IMG/VR virus record: IMGVR_UViG_3300046001_006061
Location: 2,928 to 66,927 of that record
Strand: one strand, 5' to 3'
Length of the DNA stretch: 64,000 bases
From: a virus
The notes below the pieces were generated by a model, which worked only from the letters and a program-made list of their open reading frames with translations, ran no database searches and was not told where the DNA came from. A program made the translations under genes and the position numbers. Below are positions 8,547-55,082 of this stretch, in pieces (the stretch's first letter is position 1; every line of letters starts with the position of its first letter).

Positions 8547-8548
8547 TT

Positions 8549-9046
8549 TTATAAAATAATATAAGTTCCTGATATGTACCAATAATCATTAGTAGCCAAA
8601 GTATTAATAGGTGTATTGTATTTAAATGCTAGGTCATTTGTTGTTCCACCATACCATAAAAGCATCGCATCAGAAGAAGGAATCCCTTCTCCTAATATTC
8701 TGTAATGCTGTGTTGCAGAAGTATCGTATGCTTGTCCATCTCTAAACGCATAAGGTACAGAAGCAGCAAATGGAAGGGTTATTGAATACTGACCCGTTCC
8801 AAAATTAGTTACTGTTGTGCAATCTACATTTATAGTAAAATGTACCAAAGAGCCAATTTTCACATAAGAATCCGTTGTGGGGTTTCCCGTATATTCTAAT
8901 CCTGTTCCTGTCCAAATTGGAGTATAGGTTTGAATATCAGAAAATCCGTTTATTTCATCGTTTATAGATAACAAATCTTGCAATATAGGATTTAAGTTCT
9001 GTAAGTTCTTAATTAATTCTATTGTCTGTAATGAATCTCTTTCCAT
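8549..9046 (-). CDS. tail-fibre-associated beta-sandwich protein
   Basis: TYTPIW...YVKIGSLVHF...GTGQYSITLPF...ISGTY, typical of fibre C-terminal domains. Confidence 0.6.
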   Translation of the reverse strand: MERDSLQTIELIKNLQNLNPILQDLLSINDEINGFSDIQTYTPIWTGTGLEYTGNPTTDSYVKIGSLVHFTINVDCTTVTNFGTGQYSITLPFAASVPYAFRDGQAYDTSATQHYRILGEGIPSSDAMLLWYGGTTNDLAFKYNTPINTLATNDYWYISGTYIIL

Positions 9047-9071
9047 TTTATTTATATTTTATTATTGAATA

Positions 9072-9896: not shown

Positions 9897-9905
9897 GCTT
9901 CAAAG

Positions 9906-18700: not shown

Positions 18701-19042
18701 AATAATGGCGTTTAACGAGAAGAAATATAGTAACGAAATGAAGTTACAAGAAATAAACAAACAAAAGAAAGTCACATTGTTTTTAATGCAGCAAAATCCC
18801 AAATAATGAAAGACCTCGAAAAATTGGTGAAAGAATACCCGCTTCTTACAAGCAATGAGCGCAAATTGCTTAAAAACATTCTCAACTATCATGGCATTAA
18901 CAAATCCGATGCTTCAAAAAGAATAGCGCAAGTTTTGAAAATACCACTTCAAGAAAACAAAATACTTTCAATTTTAACCGCTTAAAAATCACATCAATAC
19001 AACTATTTTATTATTTATTGGTGTCAATTAATAGGGAAAAGT

Positions 19043-19050
19043 TATATTTG
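19043..19050 (+). promoter_or_regulatory. TATATTTG promoter directly upstream of the cassette array
   Basis: TAnnTTTG, 10 nt before the first TAAC. Confidence 0.7.
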
Positions 19051-19060
19051 TAGGAGAAAA

Positions 19061-19145
19061 TAACGGGCGGACGGTTTGGGCAGGCTGCAAACCTGACCAA
19101 CTTTCCACCCTAACCAACATCGCAGCTTGCTTAAACCGTATGTTA
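19061..19145 (-). repeat. attC-like site 1
   Basis: TAAC GGGCGG ACGGTTTGGGCAGGCTGC...GCAGCTTGCTTAAACCGT AT GTTA. Confidence 0.75.
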
Positions 19146-19204
19146 GAAGCAGTTAATTAAACCTTGTGCGTGGGGTTCACGCAAGTAAATTAGAAAATAA
19201 AATT

Positions 19205-19531
19205 ATGACATTTATTCATCAGCCAACAGAATTTGAAAAACAAAAAAATGATAAAGATTTTATAGAAAGATTGAAATCATTTTGTAAAAACCAATTAGAA
19301 GAAAAACCAAAAAAAATGAGTAATAAAGATAGAATTGATTATATCTCATTCCTTCATAAGCAAAATTTGAATGGAAGAGAAGATGAGGATACGCTTTTTG
19401 AAGCTGGTATAGAAGCTGGCATAACAGAAACAGAAGAGTTTATGTTAGAATTTATTGTTAGTTTAAATCTTCCATTTACTGAAGATGAAATTACGGAAAT
19501 GTTTAATAAATTTAAAGCAAATGCAGAATAA
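19205..19531 (+). CDS. cassette 1 ORF a, hypothetical
   Basis: ATG 19205 after the leader shared with cassette 8. Confidence 0.65.
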   Translation: MTFIHQPTEFEKQKNDKDFIERLKSFCKNQLEEKPKKMSNKDRIDYISFLHKQNLNGREDEDTLFEAGIEAGITETEEFMLEFIVSLNLPFTEDEITEMFNKFKANAE

Positions 19532-19802
19532 AACATACAGTGGGATACTAATTAAATATGTTAGAGATAACAATATGATTATTTGGAAAATAGAAGAATC
19601 ACTAGCTGCTTTAAATATTTATGTCGATTGTAAAGATGAAGATAAACTAACCGATTTAGATAATGAACGAAAAGTATATTTCAAACTCAAAAAAGTATTT
19701 ATGGGTAGAGAATATGGCGAAGATATGAATATGAATTTAGCATATAACCTAAGTTTTGAAATAAATGTCCAAGCGCAAAAGGCGGAAGCAAGCAAGGTTT
19801 AA
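19521..19802 (+). CDS. cassette 1 ORF b, hypothetical
   Basis: Overlaps the ORF a stop; ends in the shared 3' flank. Confidence 0.6.
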   Translation: MQNKTYSGILIKYVRDNNMIIWKIEESLAALNIYVDCKDEDKLTDLDNERKVYFKLKKVFMGREYGEDMNMNLAYNLSFEINVQAQKAEASKV

Positions 19803-19814
19803 TTTATTGCTTTC

Positions 19815-19941
19815 TAACGGTATCGGGGCTTGTAGCAGTAGGGGATTTTGAAAAACTACTGCTCAATTAACCACCACAGCCCAATAGAAGTAAAAGGCTC
19901 AAAACTTGCACTTCTGCCCCTATTGCTACAGACCCTTGTTA
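19815..19941 (-). repeat. attC-like site 2
   Basis: TAAC GGTATC GGGGCTTGTAGCAGTAGGGG...CCCCTATTGCTACAGACCCTT GTTA; near-copy of site 11. Confidence 0.8.
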
Positions 19942-19988
19942 GCGGTAGGTTTTTTCAAATCAAGGGTTAATTTTAAAAGTTACATAAA

Positions 19989-20234
19989 ATGTTCAAAAAG
20001 AAAATAACATATTTTGTACTATATTTTTTAGAAGGAAATTCAAATAATAAATATAGTGTTTATATGACATCTAATGTAGAAAGTACAAACTCCTCCGAAT
20101 TTAATTTGCATTTTAATAATCAATGCAAATTAAATTACGAAGAAAATACGGGTTTAAAAACTGATGAAGTGGTTATCGAAAGCATTCAAATGATTTCTAT
20201 TCAAGTTTCTTTGTTTGGGTGGCGTATTTTTTAA
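19989..20234 (+). CDS. cassette 2 ORF, hypothetical
   Basis: 81 aa between sites 2 and 3. Confidence 0.6.
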   Translation: MFKKKITYFVLYFLEGNSNNKYSVYMTSNVESTNSSEFNLHFNNQCKLNYEENTGLKTDEVVIESIQMISIQVSLFGWRIF

Positions 20235-20243
20235 ACTTACCGC

Positions 20244-20370
20244 TAACGTTTTCGGGCTTTGTGTCCGTTGGCGACTTAAACTACAAATGTTAAATTGAAA
20301 AACAAATATTGATATGAGTACAAAAATTAAATCGAAGAACGAAACCGCCAATGGCACAAAACCCGTGTTA
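20244..20370 (-). repeat. attC-like site 3
   Basis: TAAC GTTTT CGGGCTTTGTGTCCGTTGGCG...CGCCAATGGCACAAAACCCG T GTTA. Confidence 0.8.
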
Positions 20371-20607
20371 GGCGAAGTTATTGATAGCAAGGTTAATCAA
20401 TTGCTGTCTTTAAGTGATGAATTTATATTCCCTGCTTACTATTCACATTCAGGTAAAACAATGTGGAAGATTTCAAATGTTTATACAAAATACGGTTCTG
20501 AAACATTGGTTTTGTGTGGCGTTGATGAAGGTATTGAAACAGCAATTGATTTGGCAATAGAACACATTTCAAAAGCTAAAGATAAGTTCTATGGTGTCGG
20601 TGTATAA
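20314..20607 (+). CDS. cassette 3 ORF, hypothetical (starts inside site 3, stops on the TAA of the next TAAC)
   Basis: ORF track plus site coordinates. Confidence 0.65.
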   Translation: MSTKIKSKNETANGTKPVLGEVIDSKVNQLLSLSDEFIFPAYYSHSGKTMWKISNVYTKYGSETLVLCGVDEGIETAIDLAIEHISKAKDKFYGVGV

Positions 20608-20730
20608 CGTTTTGCGGCTTTATGCAGTAGCGGACTTAAACCAAAAAATTTGATATGGAAAACGAAATTATAAATACAGATAAAAGTTCATTAGAACCAC
20701 GAAATCCGCTATTGCTTAAAGCTGATGTTA
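20605..20730 (-). repeat. attC-like site 4
   Basis: TAAC GTTTTG CGGCTTTATGCAGTAGCGGA...TCCGCTATTGCTTAAAGCTG AT GTTA. Confidence 0.8.
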
Positions 20731-20966
20731 TAAGCCGTTTTGGTGAATGTAAGTACAGTTGTCAATTAACACACGAGCCAAGTTGGTTTCATACAATATT
20801 GATTAAAGACTTTAGCATTTATATCGAGGAATGGATGGATGATGAAGATAATGAAATTTGTGCAACAGTTTTTACAGGCGAGAAAAAAAATGCTAATGGC
20901 TTTGCAAATACCAACTTGGCTTTATTGTTGAATGATATTGAGGAGTTCGTTAAAAATGGCTTATAA
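20655..20966 (+). CDS. cassette 4 ORF, hypothetical (starts inside site 4)
   Basis: 103 aa; stop is the TAA of TAAC at 20964. Confidence 0.65.
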   Translation: MENEIINTDKSSLEPRNPLLLKADVISRFGECKYSCQLTHEPSWFHTILIKDFSIYIEEWMDDEDNEICATVFTGEKKNANGFANTNLALLLNDIEEFVKNGL

Positions 20967-21057
20967 CGTTTGGTGGCTTTGTGTCTGTTTGCCCCTTGCG
21001 CAAAGTTTCAAGTTTACCACAAATGTTGATGGGGCAAATAGCACAAAACCGCTGTTA
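20964..21057 (-). repeat. attC-like site 5
   Basis: TAAC GTTT...GGCTTTGTGTCTGTTTGCCCC...GGGGCAAATAGCACAAAACCGCT GTTA; near-copy of site 7. Confidence 0.8.
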
Positions 21058-21095
21058 TGCGTAGTAGCGGATTATTAACGATAAATTTAATTAAA

Positions 21096-21563
21096 ATGAT
21101 GAAACATAAACAAAAACAACCTTACGGATGCGGTTTATATGCCGTTGCAAACGCCTGTAATTTAGACAACTTTATTACAGATGAAAGACTTGAAAAAAGT
21201 AAAACAGGAAATGTAATAGGGCAACTTTCAAAGTGGATGCAAGAAGATGGACACCCATTTTACATTGATACGCTTTACTATAACCACGTTGGAAAAAAGT
21301 TACCTAAAACGGCATTGGACTATAAACCAAGTGGAGAAGGAATACATTTTTTGCCTGTGCTTATAAATGTAAGATTTTCTGATGAAGGGAAAAATCATTT
21401 AGTAGGTGGGAAAATTGACAAAGAAGGCAAATTATATTTATACGATAGCCTTAAAGAAGAAATGATTGAAACAACGATGAGGCAGGTAAACAGAATGTAT
21501 CATCACGTTTACGGGTTGTTTTTGTTTATGGGTGTTGATAATGGAGAATATGTCTTTATATAG
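21096..21563 (+). CDS. cassette 5 ORF, papain-like cysteine peptidase
   Basis: Q..PYGCGLYAVAN nucleophile helix, NHLVG, LYLYDSL (Cys-His-Asp). Confidence 0.6.
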   Translation: MMKHKQKQPYGCGLYAVANACNLDNFITDERLEKSKTGNVIGQLSKWMQEDGHPFYIDTLYYNHVGKKLPKTALDYKPSGEGIHFLPVLINVRFSDEGKNHLVGGKIDKEGKLYLYDSLKEEMIETTMRQVNRMYHHVYGLFLFMGVDNGEYVFI

Positions 21564-21584
21564 CAGTAACGTAGCTATTACGCA

Positions 21585-21672
21585 TAACGTTTTGCGTATA
21601 TGAGAAGTGGCACTTGCAGAATGTTGAAAGTTAGCACGAATGTTTCTGTGCCATTTCTTATATACGCTGTTA
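21585..21672 (-). repeat. attC-like site 6
   Basis: TAAC GTTTT GCGTATATGAGAAGTGGCAC...GTGCCATTTCTTATATACGC T GTTA; near-copy of site 10. Confidence 0.85.
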
Positions 21673-21708
21673 TAAGCAGCCTTTTTATTAACTTAAATTA
21701 AAAACAAA

Positions 21709-21981
21709 ATGAGAAACTTTAAAACAAAAATTGAAGGACACGAAGAAGAGTTTGACTTTGAATGTTACGAAAATACAGAATCAATAGAAATTGGAGATAA
21801 ATATATTTTCTTTTTTGGTGGTATTGCAGACGTTCAAGTATGCGACTCTGAAAATGTAAAAGAAGAAGTAAACAAACACAATAGACCTTATCAGTACGAT
21901 AAAATTGATTTAACACACAATTTTTGGACTAAGTGTTTTAAAATTAAAGAAACAAATTTTGACCTTAGTACGGTTTTATAA
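21709..21981 (+). CDS. cassette 6 ORF, hypothetical
   Basis: 90 aa. Confidence 0.65.
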   Translation: MRNFKTKIEGHEEEFDFECYENTESIEIGDKYIFFFGGIADVQVCDSENVKEEVNKHNRPYQYDKIDLTHNFWTKCFKIKETNFDLSTVL

Positions 21982-21990
21982 GGTTGCTTA

Positions 21991-22084
21991 TAACGTTTTG
22001 CGGCTTTGTGTCTGTTTGCCCCTTGCACAAAAGTTTCAAGTTACCACAAATGTTGATGGGGCAAATAGCACAAAACCGCTGTTA
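21991..22084 (-). repeat. attC-like site 7
   Basis: Same family as site 5. Confidence 0.85.
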
Positions 22085-22136
22085 TATGCCGTTGTGGGTT
22101 GTCAAAAGGAATTTTAAAACTTAATAATTAAAAAAT

Positions 22137-22742
22137 ATGTATAAATGTAATATTTGTCCTGCTGAATTTAAAACAGAAAAGGGATTATCAAACCACAAAT
22201 GTAGGTGGATATGTAAAATATGTGGAACTAAACTTACCACACCAAAAGGTTATGATAGGCACTTGCAAAATCATAGTAACTCTGAAACAAGAAAAAAAGA
22301 ACAACAGATAAAGCAGGTTGAAGCACAAAAACAAAAAGATGAAGAATTTGCAATAAAATATCAAAAATTGATTGATATGGGTTTATTTAATCCATTACAT
22401 AATTCTGGCGATAGTGTTATTGTTTCTACATATATTGTAACAAAGCCAACTCACGAACAAAGGTTTAATAGAATGGTAAGAGTTCGGTATGAAGAGGAAA
22501 GAAGGTATGATGTATTTGATTGGATAATAGACAAAGCAATAGAACCAACAATTAACGATTTGTATAGGATTAATAATTGTATTGAGTTGAATAAACAATA
22601 TCCAATTCAATATTTAACAAAGAATTTTAAAGTAATTTCTGAATCCAATATTTTTCAAGATAGAACCAAAGCTATTGATGAGGCAACTAATAAAGGTAAA
22701 CAATATAAAGAGGCTTGTGACTTTGCTTCTATGTGTCGCTAA
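22137..22742 (+). CDS. cassette 7 ORF, tandem C2H2-type zinc-finger protein
   Basis: YKCNICPAEFKTEKGLSNH and CKICGTKLTTPKGYDRHLQNH. Confidence 0.7.
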   Translation: MYKCNICPAEFKTEKGLSNHKCRWICKICGTKLTTPKGYDRHLQNHSNSETRKKEQQIKQVEAQKQKDEEFAIKYQKLIDMGLFNPLHNSGDSVIVSTYIVTKPTHEQRFNRMVRVRYEEERRYDVFDWIIDKAIEPTINDLYRINNCIELNKQYPIQYLTKNFKVISESNIFQDRTKAIDEATNKGKQYKEACDFASMCR

Positions 22743-22752
22743 CAATGGCATA

Positions 22753-22840
22753 TAACGGGCGGACGCTTGCATTGCAGGTTGCAAAAACAATAATTATTCC
22801 TTACAGTAACTTGTCAGCAACTTGCTGCAAGCGTATGTTA
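22753..22840 (-). repeat. attC-like site 8
   Basis: TAAC GGGCGG ACGCTTGCA..GCAGGTTGC...GCAACTTGCTGCAAGCGT AT GTTA; family of site 1. Confidence 0.75.
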
Positions 22841-22899
22841 GAAGCAGTAAATTAAACCTTGTGCGTGGGGTTCACGCAAGCAAATTAGAAAATAAAATT

Positions 22900-23307
22900 A
22901 TGAAATCAACAGAAGAAGAAAAGAAAAAAGAAAAAATAGTTCAATCCGCTTACGGTAATCTTTATGAAAAATATAAAATAAACATAAATAAATACAGCGG
23001 ATTCACAGATACAAAAGAGGAAAAATTAGGATTCTCGCCATTGTCTGATGAAATTGAATATTTGGATTTTACTTGTAGTAATTTATGGAGACCAATTTCG
23101 TTAAAAGGAATAGAAAATAATAATGGGTGGATACGTATTGATAATAAACAATCAATTGAAAAAATAAATTATGTTGGATGGGCGTTCATACGTGTTTGTC
23201 GTGAAAATATTGAAGATATTTATTGTGAATATGTAGCAAATTCAATAGGCTATTTCTATGCTACTCATTACCAACCAATAATAAAACCTAAATCACCTCA
23301 TTTTTAG
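22900..23307 (+). CDS. cassette 8 ORF, phage hypothetical with DUF551-like C-terminus
   Basis: NNNGWIRI...ATHYQPIIKP. Confidence 0.6.
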   Translation: MKSTEEEKKKEKIVQSAYGNLYEKYKININKYSGFTDTKEEKLGFSPLSDEIEYLDFTCSNLWRPISLKGIENNNGWIRIDNKQSIEKINYVGWAFIRVCRENIEDIYCEYVANSIGYFYATHYQPIIKPKSPHF

Positions 23308-23348
23308 CGCAAAAGGCGGAAGCAAGCAAGGTTTAATTTATTGCTTTC

Positions 23349-23426
23349 TAACGTTTTCGGGCTTGGCGAAGTGGCTTTTGTGCGTTGGCTTGTGTGTCGG
23401 GAAGCCATTTTGCCAAACCCGTGTTA
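23349..23426 (-). repeat. attC-like site 9
   Basis: TAAC GTTTT CGGGCTTGGCGAAGTGGCT...AGCCATTTTGCCAAACCCG T GTTA; arms shared with site 12. Confidence 0.85.
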
Positions 23427-23486
23427 TACGCTGGCACGGGTAATTTAGTAGGAACTTAATTTGAAACACAAATAAAAATCAAAGCA

Positions 23487-23792
23487 ATGGCAACAGCAAT
23501 TTATGAAATACCGAACTCCGTAAAGGAAATGTTTGAACAAGGCGAAAATAGTTATCGCATAATTGACTATTCAATACAGGAAATGGACAATATCCAAAGT
23601 ATGCAACATTTCCTTGACTGCATAGGTGCAACAAGCGATAATATTGAAACAGACGATGGAACGCAAGTGGTAATTATTCATCCTGACTTTGACCACAAAC
23701 TTGTAATTGATAGTGGTGGGTTGGGCGATTTTTATTCTCACGGTTATGACGTAACTCTCTATTCGGAGACGGTCAGTAGTGCTTGCGTATAA
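23487..23792 (+). CDS. cassette 9 ORF, acidic hypothetical protein
   Basis: 101 aa; stop is the TAA of TAAC at 23790. Confidence 0.65.
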   Translation: MATAIYEIPNSVKEMFEQGENSYRIIDYSIQEMDNIQSMQHFLDCIGATSDNIETDDGTQVVIIHPDFDHKLVIDSGGLGDFYSHGYDVTLYSETVSSACV

Positions 23793-23877
23793 CGTTTTGC
23801 GTATATGAGAAGTGGCACTTGTAGAATGTTGAAATTTAGCACAAATGTTTCTGTGCCATTTCTTATATACGCTGTTA
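23790..23877 (-). repeat. attC-like site 10
   Basis: Near-copy of site 6. Confidence 0.85.
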
Positions 23878-23946
23878 CCTGCTGGTGCGGTTAATTTAGT
23901 AGAATTTTGATTTGAAAACGAATAGAAAATTTAAAAAGTTTTAGAG

Positions 23947-24192
23947 ATGGAAACACAAAAAATGTATGGAGTAGAATATAAAACAGATAGCAGTTCTACT
24001 TATGAAATATTTGAAAATTACGATGATGCGTTAGCTTTTGCTAATAGTAATGAAAATGCTATGTTTTTATTTACAGCAGACTTTAATAAGGACAGAGTTT
24101 ATTTAGATAGTGAAACTTGGAATTACGATGATTTTACCGACACTTTTATTAACCAAGAAATAATTGAAACTTATGAAATATATGGGAAGTAA
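23947..24192 (+). CDS. cassette 10 ORF a, acidic hypothetical protein
   Basis: 81 aa, D/E-rich. Confidence 0.6.
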   Translation: METQKMYGVEYKTDSSSTYEIFENYDDALAFANSNENAMFLFTADFNKDRVYLDSETWNYDDFTDTFINQEIIETYEIYGK

Positions 24193-24940
24193 GGCGAGAT
24201 TTAGTAAAGAGATTTTGCCGATAATATTAAAAGACAGAACAGCCGACCAATGGTATGTTGAGCCATTTGCAGGTGGAATGAACGCAATTTGTGATGTAGA
24301 TGGCAATAGACTTGCTAATGATAAAAACTACCACTTAATTGAAATGTGGAAAGGATTAACAAATGGCGTTAAATACCCAACAGACATACCAAAAGATTTG
24401 TATGACCTTGCAAGAGATGTTTATAATGGTAGAGAAACAAGGTTTGAACACAAAATGAATATGGCTGATGATATGGTGGGTTGGATTGGTTGGATGGGTT
24501 CTGCAAATGGTAGATTTTTTGATGGTGGATATTCTGGTAAATCAAATACCAAAATTGGAACGGTAAGAAATTACATTAAGGAAGCAATAAGTAATATTGA
24601 AAAGCAATTACCAAAGATGGTAGGTGTTAAATTTGAGAACAAAGATTATACTGAATTGCTATTACCCAATAACAGTATTATTTATTGCGACATTCCATAT
24701 CAAGGAACAAAACAATATTCAACATCAAAAGATTTTAACCATTCAAATTTTTGGAAATGGTGCAGAGAAAAGGCAAAGCAAGGACATACAATTTTTGTAA
24801 GTGAATACGAAGCACCTGCCGACTTTGAATGTGTTTGGCAAAAAGAGGCTAAATCTTCTTTATCGGCAAATGGTGTAATAGGTGGTAATAAGGTGAGTGT
24901 GGAAAAACTTTTTAAATTTTCTCCCACAAATGCTAATTAG
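24173..24940 (+). CDS. cassette 10 ORF b, Dam/D12-class DNA adenine methyltransferase
   Basis: KYMGSK, YVEPFAGG, AND.N, IYCDIPY, FVSEY. Confidence 0.9.
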   Translation: MKYMGSKARFSKEILPIILKDRTADQWYVEPFAGGMNAICDVDGNRLANDKNYHLIEMWKGLTNGVKYPTDIPKDLYDLARDVYNGRETRFEHKMNMADDMVGWIGWMGSANGRFFDGGYSGKSNTKIGTVRNYIKEAISNIEKQLPKMVGVKFENKDYTELLLPNNSIIYCDIPYQGTKQYSTSKDFNHSNFWKWCREKAKQGHTIFVSEYEAPADFECVWQKEAKSSLSANGVIGGNKVSVEKLFKFSPTNAN

Positions 24941-24964
24941 AAGCACGAATGTAGCACTTGCAGG

Positions 24965-25091
24965 TAACGGTCTGGGGCTTGTAGCAGAAGGGGAATTTGA
25001 AAAACTACTGCGCAATTAACCACCACAGCCTAATAGAAGTAATAAGGCTCAAAACTTCCACTTCTGCCCCTATTGCTACAAACCCTTGTTA
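24965..25091 (-). repeat. attC-like site 11
   Basis: Near-copy of site 2. Confidence 0.8.
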
Positions 25092-25139
25092 GCGGTTCGG
25101 GCTTGTTTTCACAAGGGTATAAATTTTAAATAAATAAAA

Positions 25140-25376
25140 ATGTCAGAGAAAAAAGTATCAGTTACCATTAAGTGTAAACAAGTAATGCACTTTGCTCAAA
25201 GTGTTGAAATGTCCGAAAGTGATTATGAGAAAATCAAAGATTTGGATTTTGAAGATGTCCACGAAATAAGAGAAAGAGAGCAGTATTCAGTTATTGAAGG
25301 ATATCTGAATTTTATGGATATTCTTGAAAGCGATGATGAATTTTTAGATGTCCAAATTACCAAAGATGAAGATTAG
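25140..25376 (+). CDS. cassette 11 ORF, acidic hypothetical protein
   Basis: 78 aa. Confidence 0.6.
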   Translation: MSEKKVSVTIKCKQVMHFAQSVEMSESDYEKIKDLDFEDVHEIREREQYSVIEGYLNFMDILESDDEFLDVQITKDED

Positions 25377-25400
25377 TAGGGTGTTTTTTAGCCTGACCGC

Positions 25401-25520
25401 TAACGTTTTCGGGCTTGGCGAAGTGGCTGAACGCGAAGCTAAATAGAATTACAAAACTTTAAAATTAAAAACGAATGATTGATAGAATTACTGAACAGCC
25501 ATTTTGCCAAACCCGTGTTA
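25401..25520 (-). repeat. attC-like site 12
   Basis: Arms as in site 9, longer loop containing the ATG of the next ORF. Confidence 0.85.
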
Positions 25521-26248
25521 GTGGCAGTACTTTTGTGAACGCAGACTGCTTTGATGTTTTTCCTTTTATTGAGGATAAATCAATTGATGCGATTATTTGC
25601 GATTTGCCTTATGGAACTACTGCTTGTAAGTGGGATAGTATCCTGCCATTAGACAAACTTTGGAATGAATACAAGCGTGTTTTAAAGCCAAACGGTGTTA
25701 TTTTACTTACTGCTTCGCAACCATTTACAACTGTTTTGATTGGAAATGATTTGAAAATGTTTAAGTATAATTTAGTTTGGGATAAAGTAGCTGTTACAAA
25801 TCCGATGTTGGCTAAAAAACAACCTATGAGATGCCACGAAGATGTATTGATTTTTTACGATAAGCAACCAACTTACAACCCACAAATGAGAGTAGGCGTA
25901 AAATGGAGTAGAGCAGGAAAAAAACAACATACAACAGATACTTTAGGGCAAAGCACGTTGTTTAATAATGGAAGCGATGAAAGTGAAATGAAATACCCTA
26001 AAAGTATTATCACATTTTCAAATGCTGACAAAACAAAAAACGAACATCCAACTCAAAAACCGATTGACTTAATGGAATGGTTGATTAAAACATATACAAA
26101 CGAAGGCGATATGGTATTAGACAATACAATGGGTTCAGGAACAACAAACTTGGCTTGTATTAAATTAAATCGCAAATCAATTGGAATAGAAAAGGAAAAA
26201 CAATATTACGATGTTGCTGTTCGGAGGGCTTCGGAGTATTGCCACTAA
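25475..26248 (+). CDS. cassette 12 ORF, N4/N6 (beta-class) DNA methyltransferase
   Basis: SIDAIICDLPYG, HPTQKP, VLDNTMGSGTT, GIEK. Confidence 0.92.
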   Translation: MIDRITEQPFCQTRVSGSTFVNADCFDVFPFIEDKSIDAIICDLPYGTTACKWDSILPLDKLWNEYKRVLKPNGVILLTASQPFTTVLIGNDLKMFKYNLVWDKVAVTNPMLAKKQPMRCHEDVLIFYDKQPTYNPQMRVGVKWSRAGKKQHTTDTLGQSTLFNNGSDESEMKYPKSIITFSNADKTKNEHPTQKPIDLMEWLIKTYTNEGDMVLDNTMGSGTTNLACIKLNRKSIGIEKEKQYYDVAVRRASEYCH

Positions 26249-26269
26249 CTATGTGATTGGCGCAACAAC

Positions 26270-27943
26270 ATGGTAATACAATCAATGATAACTAACATTT
26301 CAGCTATACCAACAGAAAGAATAATGAGTTGTGATTTTGTAATTATAACTCATTATTTACCGAACACAGATTATGTTTTTAGTGGCAATGAGGTTTACAA
26401 GAAAATAAACAGTAACCTAAAACCAGTATCAACTTATATGAGTGGTAGATGTAAGGTCGCTAAGATAAATACTAAGCCAAAAAGTTTAACATGGCTAAAA
26501 GCAAATAGAAAAAGCAAAATAGAAACTTTTATAAAAAACGTACAAATATTACCTTTTTAAACATGAAAAATAAACCAATCCCCAAATCCAAACTAGGGCG
26601 CAACAAAAACGAACTGCCAACAAAGCGTATTTCACGAAGAGTTGACCCTCGTATTTACGACAACTGTATTGACTACATAGCTAGTCAAGTTAAATTAATA
26701 AAGTCACAAAAAACACCAATCGAACAATGAAAAGAGCATTGCAAATTTTAGGAAACTTAGCTATATTAGCTGTGTTTATGTTTTATGTTTGGCAAACTTT
26801 AGTTAGATAGAATTATGACATTTAGCATATTCGAAGAAGACTTTACTCAACCGCAAAGACGAGGAGAACTAATAGCAACATTTACAATATCAAGTAAATT
26901 AACCAAACTCCAAAAGCGAGAAACAAGAGATTACTTTTGGCAAATAAAAGACTATCTTCAAAAAATAGAAAACAAAAATTTAATAATTAAAATAGGAGAA
27001 TAACATGGATAAATTAGCATTTTACATCATAATAGCAGTAATAGGAAGCGTTGTAGCTTGGTTTAGCTACATTGTTTACACTTTACTTCGTAGCCGCAAC
27101 ACACCGCAGCAAAAGGACAAAGACTTAGTTTTAATAAAATCTATTCGTTTTGAAATAGACGGCTTAAAGGATAGAGTTATTGAATTATACAAGCGTACCG
27201 AAGTTTACGAGATACACGATACCGATTCACCTATAATAGTGGTAACAATTGGTGAAGCAGTGGCGAGAATGAAGCATAAGCAAATATTTCTAAATTATAG
27301 ACAAGCGTGTTTAGATATGGATAGAATTTTTAAAGTAGTAGTAATAACAGTATAAATTATGGAACAGAAAATAAAAGAAGTACAAGAATACTTCAAACAA
27401 AAAATGCTTAAAGGCGAGTTTGTATTGGGCGAAAAAGTTGAACCAACATTTTCAGATATTATAATCGAGGATAGGTATAAATTTATAATTTGGATAAGTA
27501 CAACACATGATACCGCTAAAGTTTGGGAAAGTGTTGATAACCATTTTATCAAAGGAATTAAGTTTACAGATGAAGAGCAAATAGAGTTCCGTAAAATTAT
27601 AGAGCCAAAACTTGCATCATGGTATATAAAAATTGGACTACAACAAGATAAAGACGCTTTCAATAAATTAGCAGTTAAACTAGGTAAAGAACAAATAACC
27701 GAATAAATGAAACCACAAAGAGAAGCAGAATTTGCAATAGTTAGAGCAGCAGTACAAGCTACTAACGACCAAAAGCTAGTGTACGACCATTATAAACGTA
27801 TTACAGCAACAGACGAAGCCACCGAAGAAGATTATATCAAACTTGGTGAAGCAAAAGAAGCATGGAAACAAGCGGGTTTAAATTCGCAGCAAATGTTTTC
27901 ACTATACAATATTTCAGAATTAACAGCAATAAATCACAAATAA
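26270..27943 (+). other. run of small hypothetical genes (26270-26560, 26563-26730, 26815-27003, 27005-27355, 27359-27706, 27707-27943)
   Basis: Co-oriented, tightly packed ORFs. Confidence 0.6.
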
Positions 27944-27968: not shown

Positions 27969-28880
27969 ATGGAAAACGAAGAAATTCAAATTATTGATGC
28001 TGGAATTTACGAACAGCAAGACAGAGCAATCTTTGATGTGCAAATTGTTACGGCTAAAAAATATCCCCGTAATATTATGAGAGCAACCTCAAATGCTATT
28101 GCAATTGTTACTATGGACATGGAAACAGCAAAAGTATGTACCTATTCAGTTCCTAGAGGTGGAAAGTCAATTACAGGACCTTCTGTGCATTTAGCTAAAA
28201 TCTTATTGCAGCAATGGGGAAACTTGCGAGTAGAAGCAAAAGTTGTAGAAACAACCGATAGACAGTTGACAAGCGAAGCAGTTTGCTTTGACCTAGAAAC
28301 TAACATTGCAGTTAAGGTTCAAGTTAAGCGTTCTATTATGACTAGAAGTGGTAGAATGACAGACGACATGATTACTGTTACGGGTAATGCTGCAAATTCA
28401 ATAGCTTTAAGAAATGCTGTTTATAATGTAATCCCTAGAGGTGTTGTTGATAAAGTTTACGATTCAGCAAAGAAAATGATTACGGGAGATTTATCAAGTG
28501 AAACAAAATTAATTGCCAAGCGTAAGCAAGTTGTAGATGCCCTAAGAGATACTTACAACATAACCGAAGAAGAAGTATTAAAAGCAGTTGGGAAGGCAGC
28601 ACAATCGCAATTAACAACAGACGATATTATTACCTTAATCGGTATCGGGACAGCAATTAAAGACGGTGATACAACAGTAGATTTTGCTTTTAGAAACTTG
28701 AAAGGAAGTGTTATCGAAAACCCAACACCAACTAATCACGAAGAAGACCGAGTAAAATTGATGTTAAGTGACTGCAAAACCGCTAAAGAAGTTGACGAAT
28801 TAGCTAAGAACAACCCCGAAATTAGCCAAGAACTTGTAATTGCAAGAAAAGACGAATTAAAACAAGGGAAACTATTGTAA
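27969..28880 (+). CDS. putative single-strand annealing/recombination protein
   Basis: 303 aa, translationally coupled to an exonuclease; YSVPRGGK.ITGPSVHLA...WGN motif; family assignment is inference. Confidence 0.45.
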   Translation: MENEEIQIIDAGIYEQQDRAIFDVQIVTAKKYPRNIMRATSNAIAIVTMDMETAKVCTYSVPRGGKSITGPSVHLAKILLQQWGNLRVEAKVVETTDRQLTSEAVCFDLETNIAVKVQVKRSIMTRSGRMTDDMITVTGNAANSIALRNAVYNVIPRGVVDKVYDSAKKMITGDLSSETKLIAKRKQVVDALRDTYNITEEEVLKAVGKAAQSQLTTDDIITLIGIGTAIKDGDTTVDFAFRNLKGSVIENPTPTNHEEDRVKLMLSDCKTAKEVDELAKNNPEISQELVIARKDELKQGKLL

Positions 28881-29812
28881 TGGAAAATGCTGATGATTTA
28901 TTATTTAGGTGTTCCGCATTGGGACACCTAATGAAAGAGCCGAAGGGTTCAAGTGCTTATTTTATACATGGAGTTGAACTTACAACAGCTAAAGCAAATA
29001 AACTAATTGACGAAGCTATTAAAACTAAAAGTATTGGAAACCTATTAGGTCTTGAAAAAAGAACTTTAAAGCCAAGCAATGACGATTTAGCAGAAGGAGT
29101 AAAAACACATTTAGTTGATGTGTATGTAGCTGCAATGTATGAAAGACATGAAGAAATATCTAGTAAATACTTGGACAAGGGAAACGAAACGGAAGAAAAT
29201 TCTATTACAATTGTTTCTCGAATGACTAAAGAGTTCTATAAGAAAAATGAAACTACTTTAAGGAATAATTTTATTTGCGGTACTCCCGATTTGTTTAAAG
29301 GAAAAGATATTCATAACGCTACTCACATTCGAGATACAAAGAGCAGCTATTCAGTTTACACTTTCCACCGTTCAATTTCAAAAGAATTATTAGACCTTTA
29401 CTATTGGCAAGTTCAAGGATACATGGCATTGAGTGGCGCACAAGTAGCAAATGTTGATTACTGCTTAAACAATACTCCTTTTAACATGATAGAAGCAGAA
29501 CTAAGACGTGAAAGTTATAAATATTTAGAAGGAAATACTCCTAATTGGATTGATTTACAAATTGCTGCCAATCATATATTTGACCGTAACAGTTTTGAAG
29601 AATTTATTCAGCGTATAGGAATTAACCCTACTGATGAAAACTCAAAAGCAATCGTTCAAGGATTTGTAGAAATACCTTTAGAAAAGCGTTGGTTTACTTT
29701 TGAAGTAAAACGCAATGATGAAGATATTCAACGCTTGTACGATAGAATAAGACAATGTAGAAACTGGATAAATGAAAGGTATTTCAATGACACAATTAGC
29801 ACCAACATTTAA
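28880..29812 (+). CDS. YqaJ/lambda-exonuclease-like PD-(D/E)XK nuclease
   Basis: FRCS..G.LM, KG...E, GTPD, D.KSS, YYWQVQGYM. Confidence 0.85.
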   Translation: MENADDLLFRCSALGHLMKEPKGSSAYFIHGVELTTAKANKLIDEAIKTKSIGNLLGLEKRTLKPSNDDLAEGVKTHLVDVYVAAMYERHEEISSKYLDKGNETEENSITIVSRMTKEFYKKNETTLRNNFICGTPDLFKGKDIHNATHIRDTKSSYSVYTFHRSISKELLDLYYWQVQGYMALSGAQVANVDYCLNNTPFNMIEAELRRESYKYLEGNTPNWIDLQIAANHIFDRNSFEEFIQRIGINPTDENSKAIVQGFVEIPLEKRWFTFEVKRNDEDIQRLYDRIRQCRNWINERYFNDTISTNI

Positions 29813-53842: not shown

Positions 53843-53957
53843 TGTTTTTTTATGTCGTTTTTCTTGACGTTTCAAATATATAAATAAAAAATGCTATATG
53901 CAATTTTTTTCAAAAACTTCACATAGCTTCTGTTAGCTGCCACCTTTAGGACAGAGT

Positions 53958-54563
53958 ATGAGAGACAATAAAGGACAATTAGAATTATTAGGTTTCTTAA
54001 AAGACAACTACCATAACGGAGATGTTAATATTGCGCCTATTCTGAAAAAAATAAGCGAATTACATAATTTTGACTACAACGACATAAAAACGTATTGTCT
54101 AAATCCATTAAGAGATAAGGGTTATATGAAAGACTGTAATTATAGCGACTTGGGTGGTTTAAATAAAAGTATTCGGGCTACTTATGACAATACAAGAATA
54201 CTTACTTGTTTGACGGAAAAGGGATATAATTATTTATTTAATTTAGACAATCATGAATTATCTAAACAGCTATCACTATCCACGTTAGAAACGAACAAGG
54301 CTATAAAGACTGCAAGTATAATTCAATGGGTTGCTGCGGTTTCCACTGTTTTAATTATTTCCGCTAATTGTATAATTGATTTTTTAAATTACGACTTTAA
54401 CAAAGCAACACATCATACATCATATATGCAACAGCAGAAAGACTCGACAGACAAAGAAGCTCAAAAAAGACTACTCGACACACTGCATATTTATCGCCAT
54501 CAAATTGACAGTCTTGTGTTATTGGGTAAGACAAAAAAGCAAGTATTTTCCAAACCAAAATAG
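53958..54563 (+). CDS. cassette ORF, winged-helix-like N-terminus plus TM helix
   Basis: L..KGY...LTEKGY; hydrophobic IIQWVAAVSTVLIISANCII. Confidence 0.6.
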   Translation: MRDNKGQLELLGFLKDNYHNGDVNIAPILKKISELHNFDYNDIKTYCLNPLRDKGYMKDCNYSDLGGLNKSIRATYDNTRILTCLTEKGYNYLFNLDNHELSKQLSLSTLETNKAIKTASIIQWVAAVSTVLIISANCIIDFLNYDFNKATHHTSYMQQQKDSTDKEAQKRLLDTLHIYRHQIDSLVLLGKTKKQVFSKPK

Positions 54564-54624
54564 TGTGTGCCGACAACGTAAAACGACACTCATTAACTAA
54601 ACTCACACTTAAACAAAAAACAAT

Positions 54625-54831
54625 ATGACAACAAAATTTAAAATTGGCGACACTGTTAAACTAAAATCAGGCAGCCCAGTAATGACAATTACCAATACAA
54701 AGGTTTGGAAAAGAGTTGAAAAGAAACTTGATTGGGACGAAACTTATGCTGAATGCACTTGGTTTGACATCGACAACAAATCACATACAAAAGAGTTTCC
54801 AAAAGACGCTTTAGAAAAAATTAACGACTAA
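54625..54831 (+). CDS. cassette ORF, YodC/DUF2158-family protein
   Basis: FKIGDTVKLKSGSPVMTI...CTWFD...F...AL. Confidence 0.85.
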   Translation: MTTKFKIGDTVKLKSGSPVMTITNTKVWKRVEKKLDWDETYAECTWFDIDNKSHTKEFPKDALEKIND

Positions 54832-54964
54832 GGTAATATACCCTAATTCCTAAGAAATAAACGTGCAATTCTTTTTTGTCTGAATCTCTAATCACTCTAA
54901 CAATGCTTGACAAAGTACCGTATTTAAATTTTGACATTATGTTTTTATACATAAGGCGAGCAGC

Positions 54965-55082
54965 TAACAGCACCCTTGCGAAAATTTGCTACCTCTCGGA
55001 ACTACTGCTCCTATTGGCTTTTTTCTGCGTTGACAACTTCGTGTTCCAATACCGCAAACTATCGCAAGGCTGCGAAACGTTA
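54965..55082 (+). repeat. attC-like site 13
   Basis: TAAC A GCACCCTTGCGAAAATTTGC...GCAAACTATCGCAAGGCTGC GAAAC GTTA; reverse-complement architecture of array sites. Confidence 0.8.

Follow-up and report, generated by a model that had tools for sequence, protein, structure and literature searches.

A probable array of twelve mobile integron-type gene cassettes in a crAss-like phage of freshwater Bacteroidota

We propose that positions 19061-26249 of a viral DNA stretch of 64,000 nucleotides (the window, part of the 66,927-base IMG/VR record IMGVR_UViG_3300046001_006061) are twelve mobile integron-type gene cassettes, and that a thirteenth stands alone at 53932-55082 on the minus strand. We put the probability of this reading at about 0.8. 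The phage carrying the array is a crAss-like phage of freshwater Bacteroidota. Direct support comes from the sites, their covariation, the pairing of each cassette's own ends, the turnover of cassettes at TAAC, seen both among sibling phages and within the window's population, and recombinase genes that lie next to related arrays. The system is integron-like in its working, yet it is not a canonical integron. Through a common site family, unrelated phages and their host bacteria would exchange accessory genes, DNA methylases among them.

Layout of the array

Twelve hairpins of 78-127 nt, all on the plus strand, start with TAAC and end in GTTA, exactly where an earlier sequence-only reading had placed them. 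That reading also described units of one or two genes ending in TAAC, which the open reading frame (ORF) calls and TAAC positions bear out. In the list below, GTTA ends at the second coordinate of each array hairpin, bits are scores of a covariance model built from the twelve elements, and own-end values are the identities defined in the next section.

19043..19050, plus strand: promoter-like box TATATTTG, 11 nt upstream of the first site
19061..19814, plus strand: cassette 1; hairpin 19061-19145; ORFs 19205-19531 and 19485/19569-19802 (function unknown); 52.4 bits
19815..20243, plus strand: cassette 2; hairpin 19815-19941; ORF 19989-20234; 93.8 bits; own-end 10/12
20244..20604, plus strand: cassette 3; hairpin 20244-20370; ORF 20314-20607; 109.5 bits
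20605..20963, plus strand: cassette 4; hairpin 20605-20730; ORF 20655-20966; 96 bits; own-end 10/12
20964..21584, plus strand: cassette 5; hairpin 20964-21057; ORF 21057-21563 (168 aa, function unknown); 86.1 bits; own-end 10/12
21585..21990, plus strand: cassette 6; hairpin 21585-21672; ORF 21709-21981; 77.8 bits; own-end 10/12
21991..22752, plus strand: cassette 7; hairpin 21991-22084; ORF 22137-22742; 91.2 bits; own-end 10/12
22753..23348, plus strand: cassette 8; hairpin 22753-22840; ORF 22900-23307; 47.1 bits
23349..23789, plus strand: cassette 9; hairpin 23349-23426; ORF 23487-23792; 60.4 bits; own-end 9/12
23790..24964, plus strand: cassette 10; hairpin 23790-23877; ORFs 23947-24192 and 24173-24940; 79.4 bits; own-end 9/12
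24965..25400, plus strand: cassette 11; hairpin 24965-25091; ORF 25140-25376; 99.5 bits
25401..26245, plus strand: cassette 12; hairpin 25401-25520; ORF 25475-26248; 87.3 bits; own-end 10/12
26246..26249, plus strand: terminal bare TAAC, the array end; no hairpin follows
53932..55082, minus strand: solo cassette; hairpin 54965-55082, then the body, closed by TAAC at 53932-53935

Coding sequence covers some of the hairpin loops and 3' arms, and the start codons of cassettes 3 (20314), 4 (20655) and 12 (25475) lie in the loop. The stop codon is the TAA of TAAC in 4/12 cassettes; cassette 3, for example, stops in the TAAC of its neighbour. Several hairpins resemble each other: those of cassettes 2 and 11 are 94-96% identical, those of 6 and 10 92%, and hairpins 9 and 12 have identical arms and different loops. 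Cassettes 1 and 8 match over about 90 nt on the 5' side and 56 nt on the 3' side but hold different genes, and in cassette 8 a 20-nt inverted repeat (95% complementary) links the two ends.

One site family with marked strands

The twelve sites fold alike. Standard pairs fill 97.9% of their cells (72.9% in shuffles), and 14/22 pairs show compensatory changes. None of 500 shuffles reaches their covariation score, and slid controls pair at 37-48%. All twelve keep the full consensus and score 47-110 bits. A covariance model had been suggested as a check on the sequence-only reading, and the model found a thirteenth site outside its training set (54965-55082, minus strand, 38.4 bits, E 8.5e-7). The same family occurs in at least 126 IMG/VR stretches. 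A set of 147 distinct sites, drawn from 64 other viral loci, has 97.6% of its cells paired and compensatory changes in 17/18 stem pairs.

The sites carry marks that set one strand apart. A G:U-type pair is fixed in 146/147 viral sites (G:U versus U:G about 226 versus 24), a consensus mismatch has C in 138/150 and A in 128/150, and the spacer is asymmetric. The strand running from TAAC to GTTA gives the more stable fold in 11/13 window sites. We take this strand, the gene-sense strand in phages, to be the one that would fold in vivo; its marks would be the fixed G:T pair, the C:A mismatch and, in the outer box, position 7, which is not of Watson-Crick type.

The ends of each unit belong together. 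For each unit, we set the 12 nt following GTTA against the reverse complement of the 12 nt that precede the next TAAC. The two agree at 5-10 of 12 positions in 11/12 units (unit 3 has 3 of 12), which upholds the earlier claim of own-end complementarity in that many units. The identities sum to 99; random partners average 50 with a maximum of 87, and 0/100,000 permutations reach the observed sum. The two flanks of one hairpin sum to 49, the chance level. Elsewhere the mean own-end identity is 8.1/12 in 191 viral and 8.4/12 in 97 bacterial cassettes (permuted partners about 3.9-4.1), and position 7 is G:T in 152/191 and 74/97 of them. In the solo cassette, 5 bases behind GTTA are complementary to those in front of the unit's own closing TAAC.

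On this reading a phage cassette starts with C-G and a 5-nt spacer that stays unpaired, followed by a long imperfect hairpin, T-GTTA, the 5' end, one or two genes, the 3' end and TAA, its 3' end pairing with its own 5' end. As a circle or a looped single strand it could rebuild one long folded site, in which TAAC and about 12 nt pair with GTTA and about 12 nt.

A recombinase gene beyond the array end of relatives

No tyrosine recombinase (PF00589) matches anywhere in the 66,927-base record, in agreement with the earlier statement that the window lacks an IntI-like gene. CheckV rates the record 51% complete, so a recombinase gene may lie elsewhere in the genome. Three complete phage genomes with the same site family have no PF00589 match at all.

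Long arrays of this family also occur in Bacteroidota chromosomes, where they end beside an Xer-like tyrosine recombinase. In 6/6 Bacteroidota genomes checked, the best Xer/IntI-like gene or remnant lies 0.06-3.7 kb beyond the TAAC-terminal array end. In 10/10 viral loci with a recombinase homologue, the gene comes immediately after that end and shares the strand of the sites. A survey with a less sensitive site finder covered 28 phage and 10 bacterial arrays whose terminal end is followed by at least 4 kb of sequence: a recombinase before the first site was found in 0/28 and 0/10, and 22/28 and 8/10 have none within 5 kb. Five siphophage arrays likewise finish in a bare TAAC, at one backbone position, and where relatives bear a recombinase, its gene comes after this end. 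By analogy with attI, the terminal TAAC at 26246-26249 may be the insertion point.

The array-associated recombinases score 94-202 bits against the integron-integrase cut-off of 265 (TIGR02249) and show no match to the IntI insertion, without which, according to Smyshlyaev et al. 2021 (in the part available to us), integrons cannot function. We rejected IntI as their identity: they are Xer-like and lack the insertion, which is why we call the system integron-like and not a canonical integron. The sequence-only reading had named a host Bacteroidota tyrosine integrase as the probable agent. A tyrosine recombinase gene, or a remnant of one, does lie beside an array in all six genomes, but the enzyme is Xer-like and not IntI. 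We infer that the acting enzyme is the Xer-like recombinase encoded past TAAC-terminal array ends in Bacteroidota chromosomes and some phages. Since the gene is missing from the present record, a host enzyme or that of a co-infecting phage would presumably act on the array in trans.

Cassettes are gained and lost at TAAC

The same site family fills the early arm of cultured Flavobacterium siphophages; one of their hairpins is 86-89% identical to that of cassette 5. Gene order in these phages is not invariant: near-identical siphophages differ in cassette content and order, with breakpoints exactly at TAAC. Five of them show cassette indels, replacement and translocation, the sequence being identical up to TAAC. 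Homology-block ends cluster at TAAC (left 17/71, right 28/65). Recurrent bodies keep the same upstream hairpin in 9/11 cases and the same downstream hairpin in 6/11. In a phage cassette the hairpin is part of the 5' end and travels with the downstream gene, and the crossover falls at the folding strand's 5' TAAC. Cassette 12 itself is 84-96% identical to a Flavobacterium siphophage cassette over 25399-26249, from TAAC to TAAC.

The window's own population varies too, and we regard the sequence-only reading of a modular, shufflable array as supported. In each of two lake metagenome runs (X1, X2) one contig (depth 21.3 and 20.8) joins 24964 to 26246, inside TAAC, which removes cassettes 11 and 12 precisely; the shorter side of this joint is 26 letters, below the advised 30. 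The methylase-spanning contig has a depth of 11, versus 40-50 for the other listed array contigs. No circular cassettes or circle junctions appear among the assembled contigs, to which this search was confined.

Exchange would occur inside the 5' TAAC, with the geometry of integron-integrase cleavage at 5' AA|C of the attC bottom strand. Cassettes would hence be inserted, deleted and moved as whole units.

Alternatively, the array could be a fossil, assembled by site-specific recombination in a recombinase-bearing ancestor or another genome and now a fixed block that no longer shuffles. The missing recombinase and the lost own-end pairing of unit 3 would fit. In about 3.3 Mb of related loci, 12/14 array genes and both solo-cassette genes have no homologue elsewhere, and two exact-pattern scans found no second IMG/VR record with the same backbone. 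Against this, all twelve sites keep the full consensus and 11/12 units keep own-end pairing. Sibling siphophages that lack a recombinase differ by whole cassettes, and the X1 and X2 contigs lack cassettes 11 and 12 with a cut inside TAAC, alongside the lower methylase contig depth. We consider the fossil unlikely.

A second alternative, which we find more doubtful still, treats the hairpins as intergenic regulatory modules. Genes would be shuffled between them by ordinary homologous or single-strand-annealing recombination, driven by an annealing protein, an exonuclease and the NinG/Rap nuclease of the phage itself and with no dedicated site-specific recombinase, as in T4-type promoter/stem-loop modules. 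In its favour, a phrog_3657 protein and an exonuclease come right after the array (27969-29812), the window encodes a NinG/Rap nuclease (42320-42937) and SSB, and the siphophages encode NinG and exonuclease and no integrase. Hairpins of 85-96% identity recur before different genes. In one siphophage event (E) the crossover lies inside a shared 19-nt hairpin arm, as ordinary homologous recombination would also give. In events A-D, though, the partners have only TAACGT(T) in common at the breakpoint, and one side differs right up to TAAC. Shuffling by homology predicts neither own-end pairing nor fixed non-Watson-Crick marks, nor a recombinase gene at one defined array end.

The sites are not promoter modules either, because only one promoter-like box is present. 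TATATTTG (19043-19050, plus strand) is the sole match upstream of the cassettes to TAnnTTTG, which we take to be the Bacteroidetes promoter consensus; 18900-26400 holds three matches, the other two inside cassette bodies, and shuffles average 4.1. The box could serve as the only promoter of the whole array, whose genes are probably transcribed together as one operon starting shortly before the first site.

Gene polarity and the level of action

Phage cassettes have their gene polarity reversed relative to bacterial ones. ORFs on the folding strand and opposite number 258:7 in phage arrays and 19:195 in bacterial arrays, while the strand marks of the sites are unchanged. Function therefore lies at the DNA and not the RNA level. 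This makes it very improbable that the hairpins govern the processing, termination or stability of a polycistronic early transcript, with flank pairing that protects mRNA and incidental DNA mobility. Such a role would suit the better-folding strand being the transcript-sense strand in phages, the fixed G:U pairs, the operon-like array and the start codons in three loops. Yet the bacterial arrays carry the same marks opposite their genes (195 versus 19 ORFs). The window's solo cassette is also antisense to its site, with ORFs 53958-54563 and 54625-54831 on the plus strand, the bacterial-type polarity. Breakpoints at TAAC in sibling phages and a recombinase gene tied to one array end likewise speak against RNA signals.

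Single-strand "peel and paste" transposons of the IS200/IS605 kind, inserted 3' of TAAC by an HUH (Y1) transposase, would explain why every unit finishes in TAAC with the next starting directly after it, and subterminal hairpins and strand specificity are features of that family, but this reading is barely credible given PF01797 matches in 0/5 sequences (the window's record and four complete array-bearing phage genomes), a single hairpin per unit instead of one at each end, and an array-tied gene that is a tyrosine recombinase of the Xer/IntI group.

Relation to known systems

Mobile integron-type cassettes, our preferred reading, invite comparison with sedentary chromosomal integrons. Both have folded imperfect palindromes with invariant AAC...GTT outer boxes, an unpaired spacer, non-paired marks that tell the strands apart, and loops of variable length and sequence. 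In both, the outer box is restored from the two ends of one cassette, the exchange point is the AAC at the folding strand's 5' end, stop codons are often the TAA of TAAC (4/12 here), and most cassette genes have no known relatives. Bacterial relatives further share long same-strand arrays with an Xer-family tyrosine recombinase gene at the insertion end. The differences are equally clear. The array-associated recombinase lacks the IntI-specific insertion and falls below the TIGR02249 cut-off. The outer box is longer, about 16 bp, and its position 7 is a fixed non-Watson-Crick one. Strand marks in attC are an extrahelical G and T, whereas the present family has a G:T pair and a C:A mismatch. 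Phage genes sit on the folding strand downstream of their own hairpin, the bacterial arrangement reversed; certain hairpin loops and 3' arms are translated, and this record has no integrase.

In T4-type phages, PeSLs are promoter-bearing stem-loop modules that recombine by homology and mediate modular gene shuffling. They too are repeated stem-loops between small accessory genes in a plastic early region whose gene content differs among relatives. Unlike them, the window array has one promoter-like box in total, breakpoints that share only TAACGT(T), mutually pairing cassette ends and, in related arrays, a linked site-specific recombinase gene. Xer recombinases use a folded single-strand substrate when CTX phage integrates at dif. 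There, as proposed here, the substrate is a hairpin formed by one DNA strand and the enzyme is of the Xer family and lacks the IntI insertion, but the outcome is a single whole-genome integration event, with neither gene-cassette arrays nor a dedicated site family.

Phage attC clusters without integrase are already known. Qi et al. (2023, PMC9892861; in the part available to us, as below) report 17 CALINs among 10,705 phage genomes, mostly of 2-4 sites. These integrase-less attC-type clusters occur in virulent phages, including Polaribacter phage P12002L of a Flavobacteriaceae host, with DNA methyltransferases among the cassettes. The bottom strand of attCaadA7 starts ...TAACG and ends ...GTTAG, as the window sites do (Qi et al., Table S3). 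P12002L gives weak matches (17-24 bits) to our 12-element model; four on the gene-sense strand have the TAACG...TGTTA-type build, two with a variant end letter. P12002L_attC1, the sole site of this type assayed, yielded no recombinants with IntI1 and attI1 (Qi et al. 2023). The available text and supplement of that paper name no Flavobacterium phages, and its available part reports no arrays of 10-16 sites, sibling-phage cassette turnover, Xer-like partner recombinase or reversed gene polarity. We found no published description of this site family, its recombinase or its polarity in the literature.

Cargo

The cargo of the array is accessory: two DNA methyltransferases, together with ten-odd small genes that have no known function. 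The methyltransferases, likely anti-restriction, are a D12-class N6-adenine enzyme in cassette 10 (24173-24940; PF02086, E 1.8e-14; phrog_56) and an N4/N6 enzyme in cassette 12 (25475-26248; PF01555, E 1.9e-32). The ORF of cassette 7 (22137-22742) encodes C2H2 zinc fingers (Pfam PF13894, PF00096), and the 68-aa ORF of the solo cassette matches phrog_3261.

Hairpin sites of the window phage

The window is part of a crAss-like phage. Its crAss muzzle protein matches Pfam with an E-value of 9.1e-38, ring proteins 1 and 2 also match, and the large terminase is matched by phrog_6681 (PHROGs). The G+C content is about 32%, and CheckV puts the completeness of the 66,927-base IMG/VR record at 51%.

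A sequence-only reading had proposed that this phage carries an integron-like array of twelve attC-like hairpins and twelve gene cassettes without an integrase. All twelve TAAC...GTTA hairpins lie where they were claimed, and each is followed downstream by one or two open reading frames (ORFs) on the same strand. We call a site with its genes, up to the next TAAC, a cassette.

Sites of the array (cassettes 1 to 12, 19061-26249)
19061-19145, + strand, site 1, TAAC start, GTTA end
19815-19941, + strand, site 2, TAAC start, GTTA end
20244-20370, + strand, site 3, TAAC start, GTTA end
20605-20730, + strand, site 4, TAAC start, GTTA end
20964-21057, + strand, site 5, TAAC start, GTTA end
21585-21672, + strand, site 6, TAAC start, GTTA end
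21991-22084, + strand, site 7, TAAC start, GTTA end
22753-22840, + strand, site 8, TAAC start, GTTA end
23349-23426, + strand, site 9, TAAC start, GTTA end
23790-23877, + strand, site 10, TAAC start, GTTA end
24965-25091, + strand, site 11, TAAC start, GTTA end
25401-25520, + strand, site 12, TAAC start, GTTA end
26246-26249, + strand, array end, bare TAAC

TAAC and GTTA are invariant in all twelve window sites. AAC and GTT are likewise invariant in 150 of 150 further sites, with the outer T kept in 147 and the outer A in 148. On an alignment of the twelve elements we tested a structure that consists of the TAAC:GTTA box and an 18-pair stem. Pairing and covariation are far above those of shuffled alignments: 97.9% of the cells are paired, versus 72.9% after shuffling and 37-48% when the partner columns are slid. 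Compensatory changes occur in 14 of the 22 pairs, and none of 500 shuffles matches the covariation score. The window sites are thus imperfect inverted repeats with the outer boxes AAC and GTT, as an attC-type site should be, and covariation backs their stem.

A covariance model built from the twelve sites scores them at 47-110 bits. Outside this training set it matches a thirteenth site at 54965-55082 on the minus strand (38.4 bits, E-value 8.5e-7). In 64 other viral loci we aligned 147 distinct sites, of which 97.6% of cells are paired in an alignment that was fitted to the model and is therefore biased toward pairing. Compensatory changes are found in 17 of the 18 stem pairs. One G:T pair is fixed in 146 of the 147 viral sites, and G:T outnumbers T:G in viral sites by about 226 to 24.

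The consensus of 150 sites reads TAAC-G-TTTT, four pairs, a C:A mismatch (C in 138, A in 128), six pairs, an occasional bulged T, eight pairs including the G:T pair, then a loop whose length is free, one T (in 148) and GTTA.

Cassettes pair with their own ends

In an integron cassette the bases after GTT complement the cassette's own far end, not that of its neighbour. The sequence-only reading had noticed this in 11 of 12 units, and our counts reproduce it. We compared the 12 nt that follow GTTA with the 12 nt that precede the unit's own terminal TAAC, the latter reverse-complemented. In 11 of 12 units 5-10 of the 12 positions agree; unit 3 is the exception (3 of 12). Over all units the identities add up to 99, whereas random partners average 50 and never exceed 87, and none of 100,000 permutations gets to 99. 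The two flanks of one and the same hairpin sum to 49, which is the chance level. In cassettes 1 and 8 own-end pairing extends to 20 nt.

For larger collections we used a site finder that combines a regular expression with a stem test. It is specific and misses about one-fifth to one-half of the sites: it recovers 12 of 13 in the window, 13 of 15 in the Flavobacterium phage filifjonk, and 3 of 8 in Chryseobacterium plus one that the model does not list. In the finder's subset, own-end identity averages 8.1 of 12 for 191 distinct viral cassettes and 8.4 of 12 for 97 bacterial ones, versus about 3.9-4.1 when permuted. Position 7 is almost never a Watson-Crick pair in this subset. It is G:T in 152 of 191 viral and 74 of 97 bacterial cassettes, and the rest are mostly C:T.

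Whole cassettes are exchanged at TAAC

A blastn search of the phage collection leads to siphophages of Flavobacterium that are virulent and in culture (genera Muminvirus and Lillamyvirus). In filifjonk9-1, whose complete genome has 38 kb, the model places 15 sites (E-values up to 0.001), every one of them on the gene strand and within 1945-10228, with no site in the rest of the genome. Four relatives hold 10-15 sites each.

Near-identical siphophages differ by whole cassettes. Three cassettes of filifjonk are missing from mumin, one cassette is missing from tooticki, and a terminal cassette is present or absent in one case and replaced in another. In these four events (A to D) the phages agree base for base as far as TAAC and diverge within the next three to four bases. 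In a fifth event a block was translocated, with the crossover inside a 19-nt arm common to two hairpins. The comparison of related phages that the sequence-only reading had called for thus reveals gain, loss and replacement of whole cassettes at TAAC.

Eleven cassette bodies recur among the siphophages. Nine always keep the same upstream hairpin and six the same downstream hairpin, so that in phages the hairpin goes with the 5' end of its cassette. Homology-block ends cluster at TAAC, where 17 of 71 on the left and 28 of 65 on the right fall. Most of the others are over 25 nt away from every site boundary, and fewer fall inside a hairpin or at GTTA. The five siphophage arrays all stop at one and the same place in the backbone, past a bare TAAC, and it is their terminal cassettes that vary most. 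Cassette 12 of the window, a hairpin with an N4/N6 methyltransferase gene, has a counterpart in these siphophages with 84-96% identity over 25399-26249, from TAAC to TAAC.

The window phage's own population, in lake water, gives evidence of the same kind. Two metagenome runs (X1 and X2) contain 94% and 92% of the region's sampled words. In each of them one contig (depth 21.3 and 20.8) joins 24964 to 26246, the exact loss of cassettes 11 and 12, with the four letters TAAC common to both sides; this joint is seen in assembled contigs instead of raw reads, and its shorter side has 26 letters where 30 are advised. Contig depth is about 11 for the methyltransferase versus 30-55 for the other listed array contigs. 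The siphophage events A to D and this joint together give what is expected of an integron, whole cassettes being gained, lost or reordered at one box. Two further runs (X3 and X4) contain only scattered parts of the stretch. The wastewater run X4 has many joints with short sides; their likely source is other phages or genomes with similar hairpins, and they were left out of account.

Through the conserved gene at 27969-28880 we reach 80 loci of crAss-like relatives, which at 50-69% protein identity are too distant for an empty-site comparison of this backbone. The model finds a match in 4 of them, and the small genes flanking the array are kept in 0 of 80. Exact stretches of 30 nt and 27 nt from either side of the array have no match elsewhere in IMG/VR.

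The site family spans Bacteroidota and their phages

With a degenerate pattern that fits only sites about 100-130 nt long, IMG/VR yields at least 126 stretches and the species-representative genomes at least 129. The genome matches listed are nearly all from Bacteroidota (Flavobacterium, Chryseobacterium, Pedobacter, Chitinophagaceae, Riemerella, Kaistella, Saprospiraceae and others), together with a few short contigs with odd labels. Among the matches listed, the model finds 209 bacterial sites in 46 loci, including same-strand arrays of 8 to more than 18 sites, and 247 viral sites in 64 loci.

The short contigs include four loci (L216, L232, L242 and L250) binned as Saccharibacteria, Pseudidiomarina and Rhizobium. 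One of them, L232, has phage-type gene polarity and a recombinase gene, so the oddly binned contigs may be mis-binned phage contigs. In a Chryseobacterium chromosomal array (L276, 10139-11017, minus strand) a cassette encodes a leucine-rich-repeat protein, whose NCBIfam leucine-rich-repeat matches are all far below the cut-offs.

Gene polarity and the folding strand

In a canonical integron the gene lies upstream of its attC site and opposite the recombined bottom strand. The window array differs: in its twelve cassettes the gene lies downstream of the hairpin and on the folding strand. The one window cassette with canonical polarity is the solo cassette that contains the thirteenth site (53932-55082, minus strand). 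Phage arrays in general run like the window array, with 258 ORFs on the folding strand versus 7 (46 of 47 arrays), whereas bacterial arrays have 195 ORFs opposite the folding strand versus 19 (28 of 30 loci), both counts being of the finder's subset. Bacterial arrays thereby resemble the canonical integron: a gene is followed by its site, and the recombinase gene lies at the insertion end.

Under DNA energy parameters, 11 of 13 window sites are more stable when the strand from TAAC to GTTA folds than when its complement does. Marks of this strand, candidates for directing strand choice, are the fixed G:T pair, the C:A mismatch, the bulged T (in about one-fifth of sites) and the non-Watson-Crick position 7; they are seen here instead of the extrahelical inner-box bases that direct this choice in integron attC sites. 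These marks keep to the site strand whichever way the genes run. Hence the folded structure serves DNA and not mRNA.

The bottom strand of attC is cleaved at 5' AA|C. For attCaadA7, this strand begins with ...TAACG and ends with ...GTTAG (Qi et al. 2023, Table S3, PMC9892861). The folding strand of the present sites is similar, with a TAACG start and a GTTAG-type end. Exchange at the 5' TAAC would thus match the attC cleavage point.

A Xer-like recombinase is linked to the arrays

No tyrosine recombinase gene is found in the window's 66,927-base record, nor in three complete array-bearing phage genomes. As the sequence-only reading had said of the window, the record contains no IntI-like gene. 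The host tyrosine integrase which that reading had envisaged needs a correction, since the enzyme linked to related arrays is Xer-like.

In five array-bearing genomes, the best tyrosine recombinase gene by an integron-integrase model lies 0.1-3.7 kb past the TAAC-terminal end of an array (one is an 89-aa remnant). In Flavobacterium sp. LMO8 the gene ends about 60 nt from the terminal TAAC. Among the matches listed, 10 of 125 viral loci carry a homologue with 30-38% identity, and all ten lie just past the last site at the TAAC-terminal end, on the strand of the sites. For arrays with at least 4 kb beyond them, a recombinase gene occurs within 5 kb past the terminal end in 6 of 28 viral and 2 of 10 bacterial arrays, and before the first site in 0 of 28 and 0 of 10. 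These distances, like the polarity and own-end counts, come from the finder's subset, and some array ends may be misplaced. With 6 of 28 viral arrays holding such a gene, most phage arrays, the window's included, lack one nearby. The relatives thus show a bare TAAC at the array end and then the recombinase gene; no conserved attI-like sequence was identified at these bare-TAAC ends.

The family that fits the linked enzymes best is NF040815 (XerA / integron integrase), with 160-228 bits against a cut-off of 220. They fail TIGR02249 of NCBIfam (94-202 bits versus 265), whose positions of about 180-240, the IntI insertion, are unmatched; the Chryseobacterium enzyme has 18 residues there versus about 60 model positions. 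The additional domain specific to IntI is found neither in the window's record nor in the relatives' enzymes. The phage recombinases are 265-294 aa long, and the nearest solved structures are a XerC-like protein, XerA and IntI4. By the curated sequence test, then, the array-linked enzyme is a Xer-like recombinase and not IntI. We infer the recombination chemistry, the acting enzyme and its action in trans.

In Flavobacterium odoriferum (L342/L352) and Flavobacterium sp. LMO8 (L355), the match lies in open frames of 627 and 584 aa. As these are about twice the usual length, a fusion with another domain is suggested.

Two other kinds of enzyme were considered. The window encodes a small serine recombinase at 50753-51436 on the plus strand (227 aa, PF00239, a DNA invertase in PHROGs). 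We set it aside as the array enzyme because PF00239 is found in 0 of 4 complete array-bearing siphophage genomes. Single-strand transposons of the IS200/IS605 type were rejected, the Y1 HUH transposase (PF01797) being found in 0 of 5 records (the window's and four complete phage genomes).

A proposed cassette system shared by phages and hosts

Integrons are the textbook device with which bacteria stock and shuffle accessory genes. We propose that Bacteroidota and their phages share a phylum-wide integron-like system, and give this reading a probability of about 60%. It would have its own site family, with a 16-bp outer box and the G:T, C:A and position-7 marks, and a Xer-like recombinase without the IntI insertion. 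Unrelated phages, crAss-like phages and siphophages, would keep swappable stores of mirror polarity for anti-restriction methylases and further early genes, fill them from one shared pool of cassettes, and rely on recombinases mostly in trans. The interpretation of the sequence-only reading is supported with three corrections: the enzyme is Xer-like, the hairpin is the 5' part of the phage cassette, and phage arrays mirror host arrays.

If this is true, current tools overlook a parallel cassette system that a major phylum runs along with many of its phages, among them crAss-like phages and cultured phages of Flavobacterium. Such a system would account for the well-known plasticity that phages show in their early regions, and for the uneven occurrence of methyltransferases. 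Given the mirror polarity, a cassette passing between phage and host arrays would land in antisense orientation to the promoter already there. For the evolution of integron integrases from Xer recombinases, it would also matter that a Xer-like enzyme can recombine folded single strands without the IntI insertion. The system is directly testable because host strains and phages are in culture.

A CALIN is a cluster of at least two attC sites, called by the IntegronFinder or HattCI models, that has no intI nearby; judged by structure, the array with its 12 sites and no recombinase would fit this definition. Phage cases are reportedly rare, with seventeen CALINs in 10,705 phage genomes, including Polaribacter phage P12002L with methyltransferase cassettes (Qi et al. 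2023, PMC9892861). In assays with IntI1 and attI1, five of the six phage sites under test gave recombination; the exception, P12002L_attC1, has a TAACG...TGTTA build (Qi et al. 2023). Our model gives six weak matches in P12002L (17-24 bits). Four of them, read on the gene-sense strand, have the TAACG...TGTTA build, two with a variant end letter. Flavobacterium phages are not named in the text and supplement Tables S1-S4 of that study.

For the same siphophages, methyltransferases have been tied to host range (Nilsson et al. 2020, PMC7077304). The main text of that paper mentions no hairpins, palindromes or stem-loops, and 'repeat' refers there only to repeated procedures. On the host side, surveys report almost no integrons in Bacteroidetes: the IntegronFinder 2.0 paper has nothing there beyond In0 elements and a single complete integron. 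A 2024 preprint lists Bacteroidota among clades previously found without integrons, whereas a 2021 review lists them among phyla with integrons. Full-text literature searches found no description of the site family, the Xer-like partner or the reversed polarity.

Expression and cassette content

Upstream of the cassettes the motif TAnnTTTG has a single match, at 19043-19050, 11 nt before the first site. We take this motif to be the Bacteroidetes -7 box consensus, and the match to be promoter-like. It lies at the opposite end of the array from the bare TAAC. With this single match, the array is probably one operon of promoterless cassettes. Cassettes 3, 4 and 12 have their start codon within the hairpin loop, which puts the 3' arm and GTTA in the translated part. 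The TAA of TAAC is the stop codon in 4 of 12.

Known functions in the array are a D12-class DNA methyltransferase, the N4/N6 DNA methyltransferase and a C2H2 zinc-finger protein. PADLOC and Pfam give no function for 11 of the 14 array ORFs and both ORFs of the solo cassette; PHROGs places two such ORFs in families of unknown function. The remaining array genes mostly have no relatives among the fetched loci.

Cassettes 1 and 8 look as if a gene had been swapped within a conserved cassette frame. At their 5' ends (19122-19211 and 22817-22906) some 90 nt are 92% identical, a stretch in which a small perfect hairpin and the start codon lie, and at their 3' ends (19772-19827 and 23306-23361) 56 nt are 96% identical, yet the genes are unrelated. 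Hairpins 9 (23349-23426) and 12 (25401-25520) have identical arms of about 28 nt on the 5' and 24 nt on the 3' side, with unrelated loops of 26 versus 68 nt. The longer loop, that of hairpin 12, contains the ribosome-binding region and start codon of the methyltransferase.

At 27969-29812 on the plus strand, 1.7 kb past the array, a conserved 303-aa protein (phrog_3657, unknown function, 107 IMG/VR relatives) is followed by an exonuclease (phrog_5715). The pair may be a recombination module of an annealing protein and an exonuclease. Two AntA/KilAC antirepressor-like genes and one Bro-N gene are scattered over the minus strand at 3719-4432, 45309-46061 and 47698-48462.
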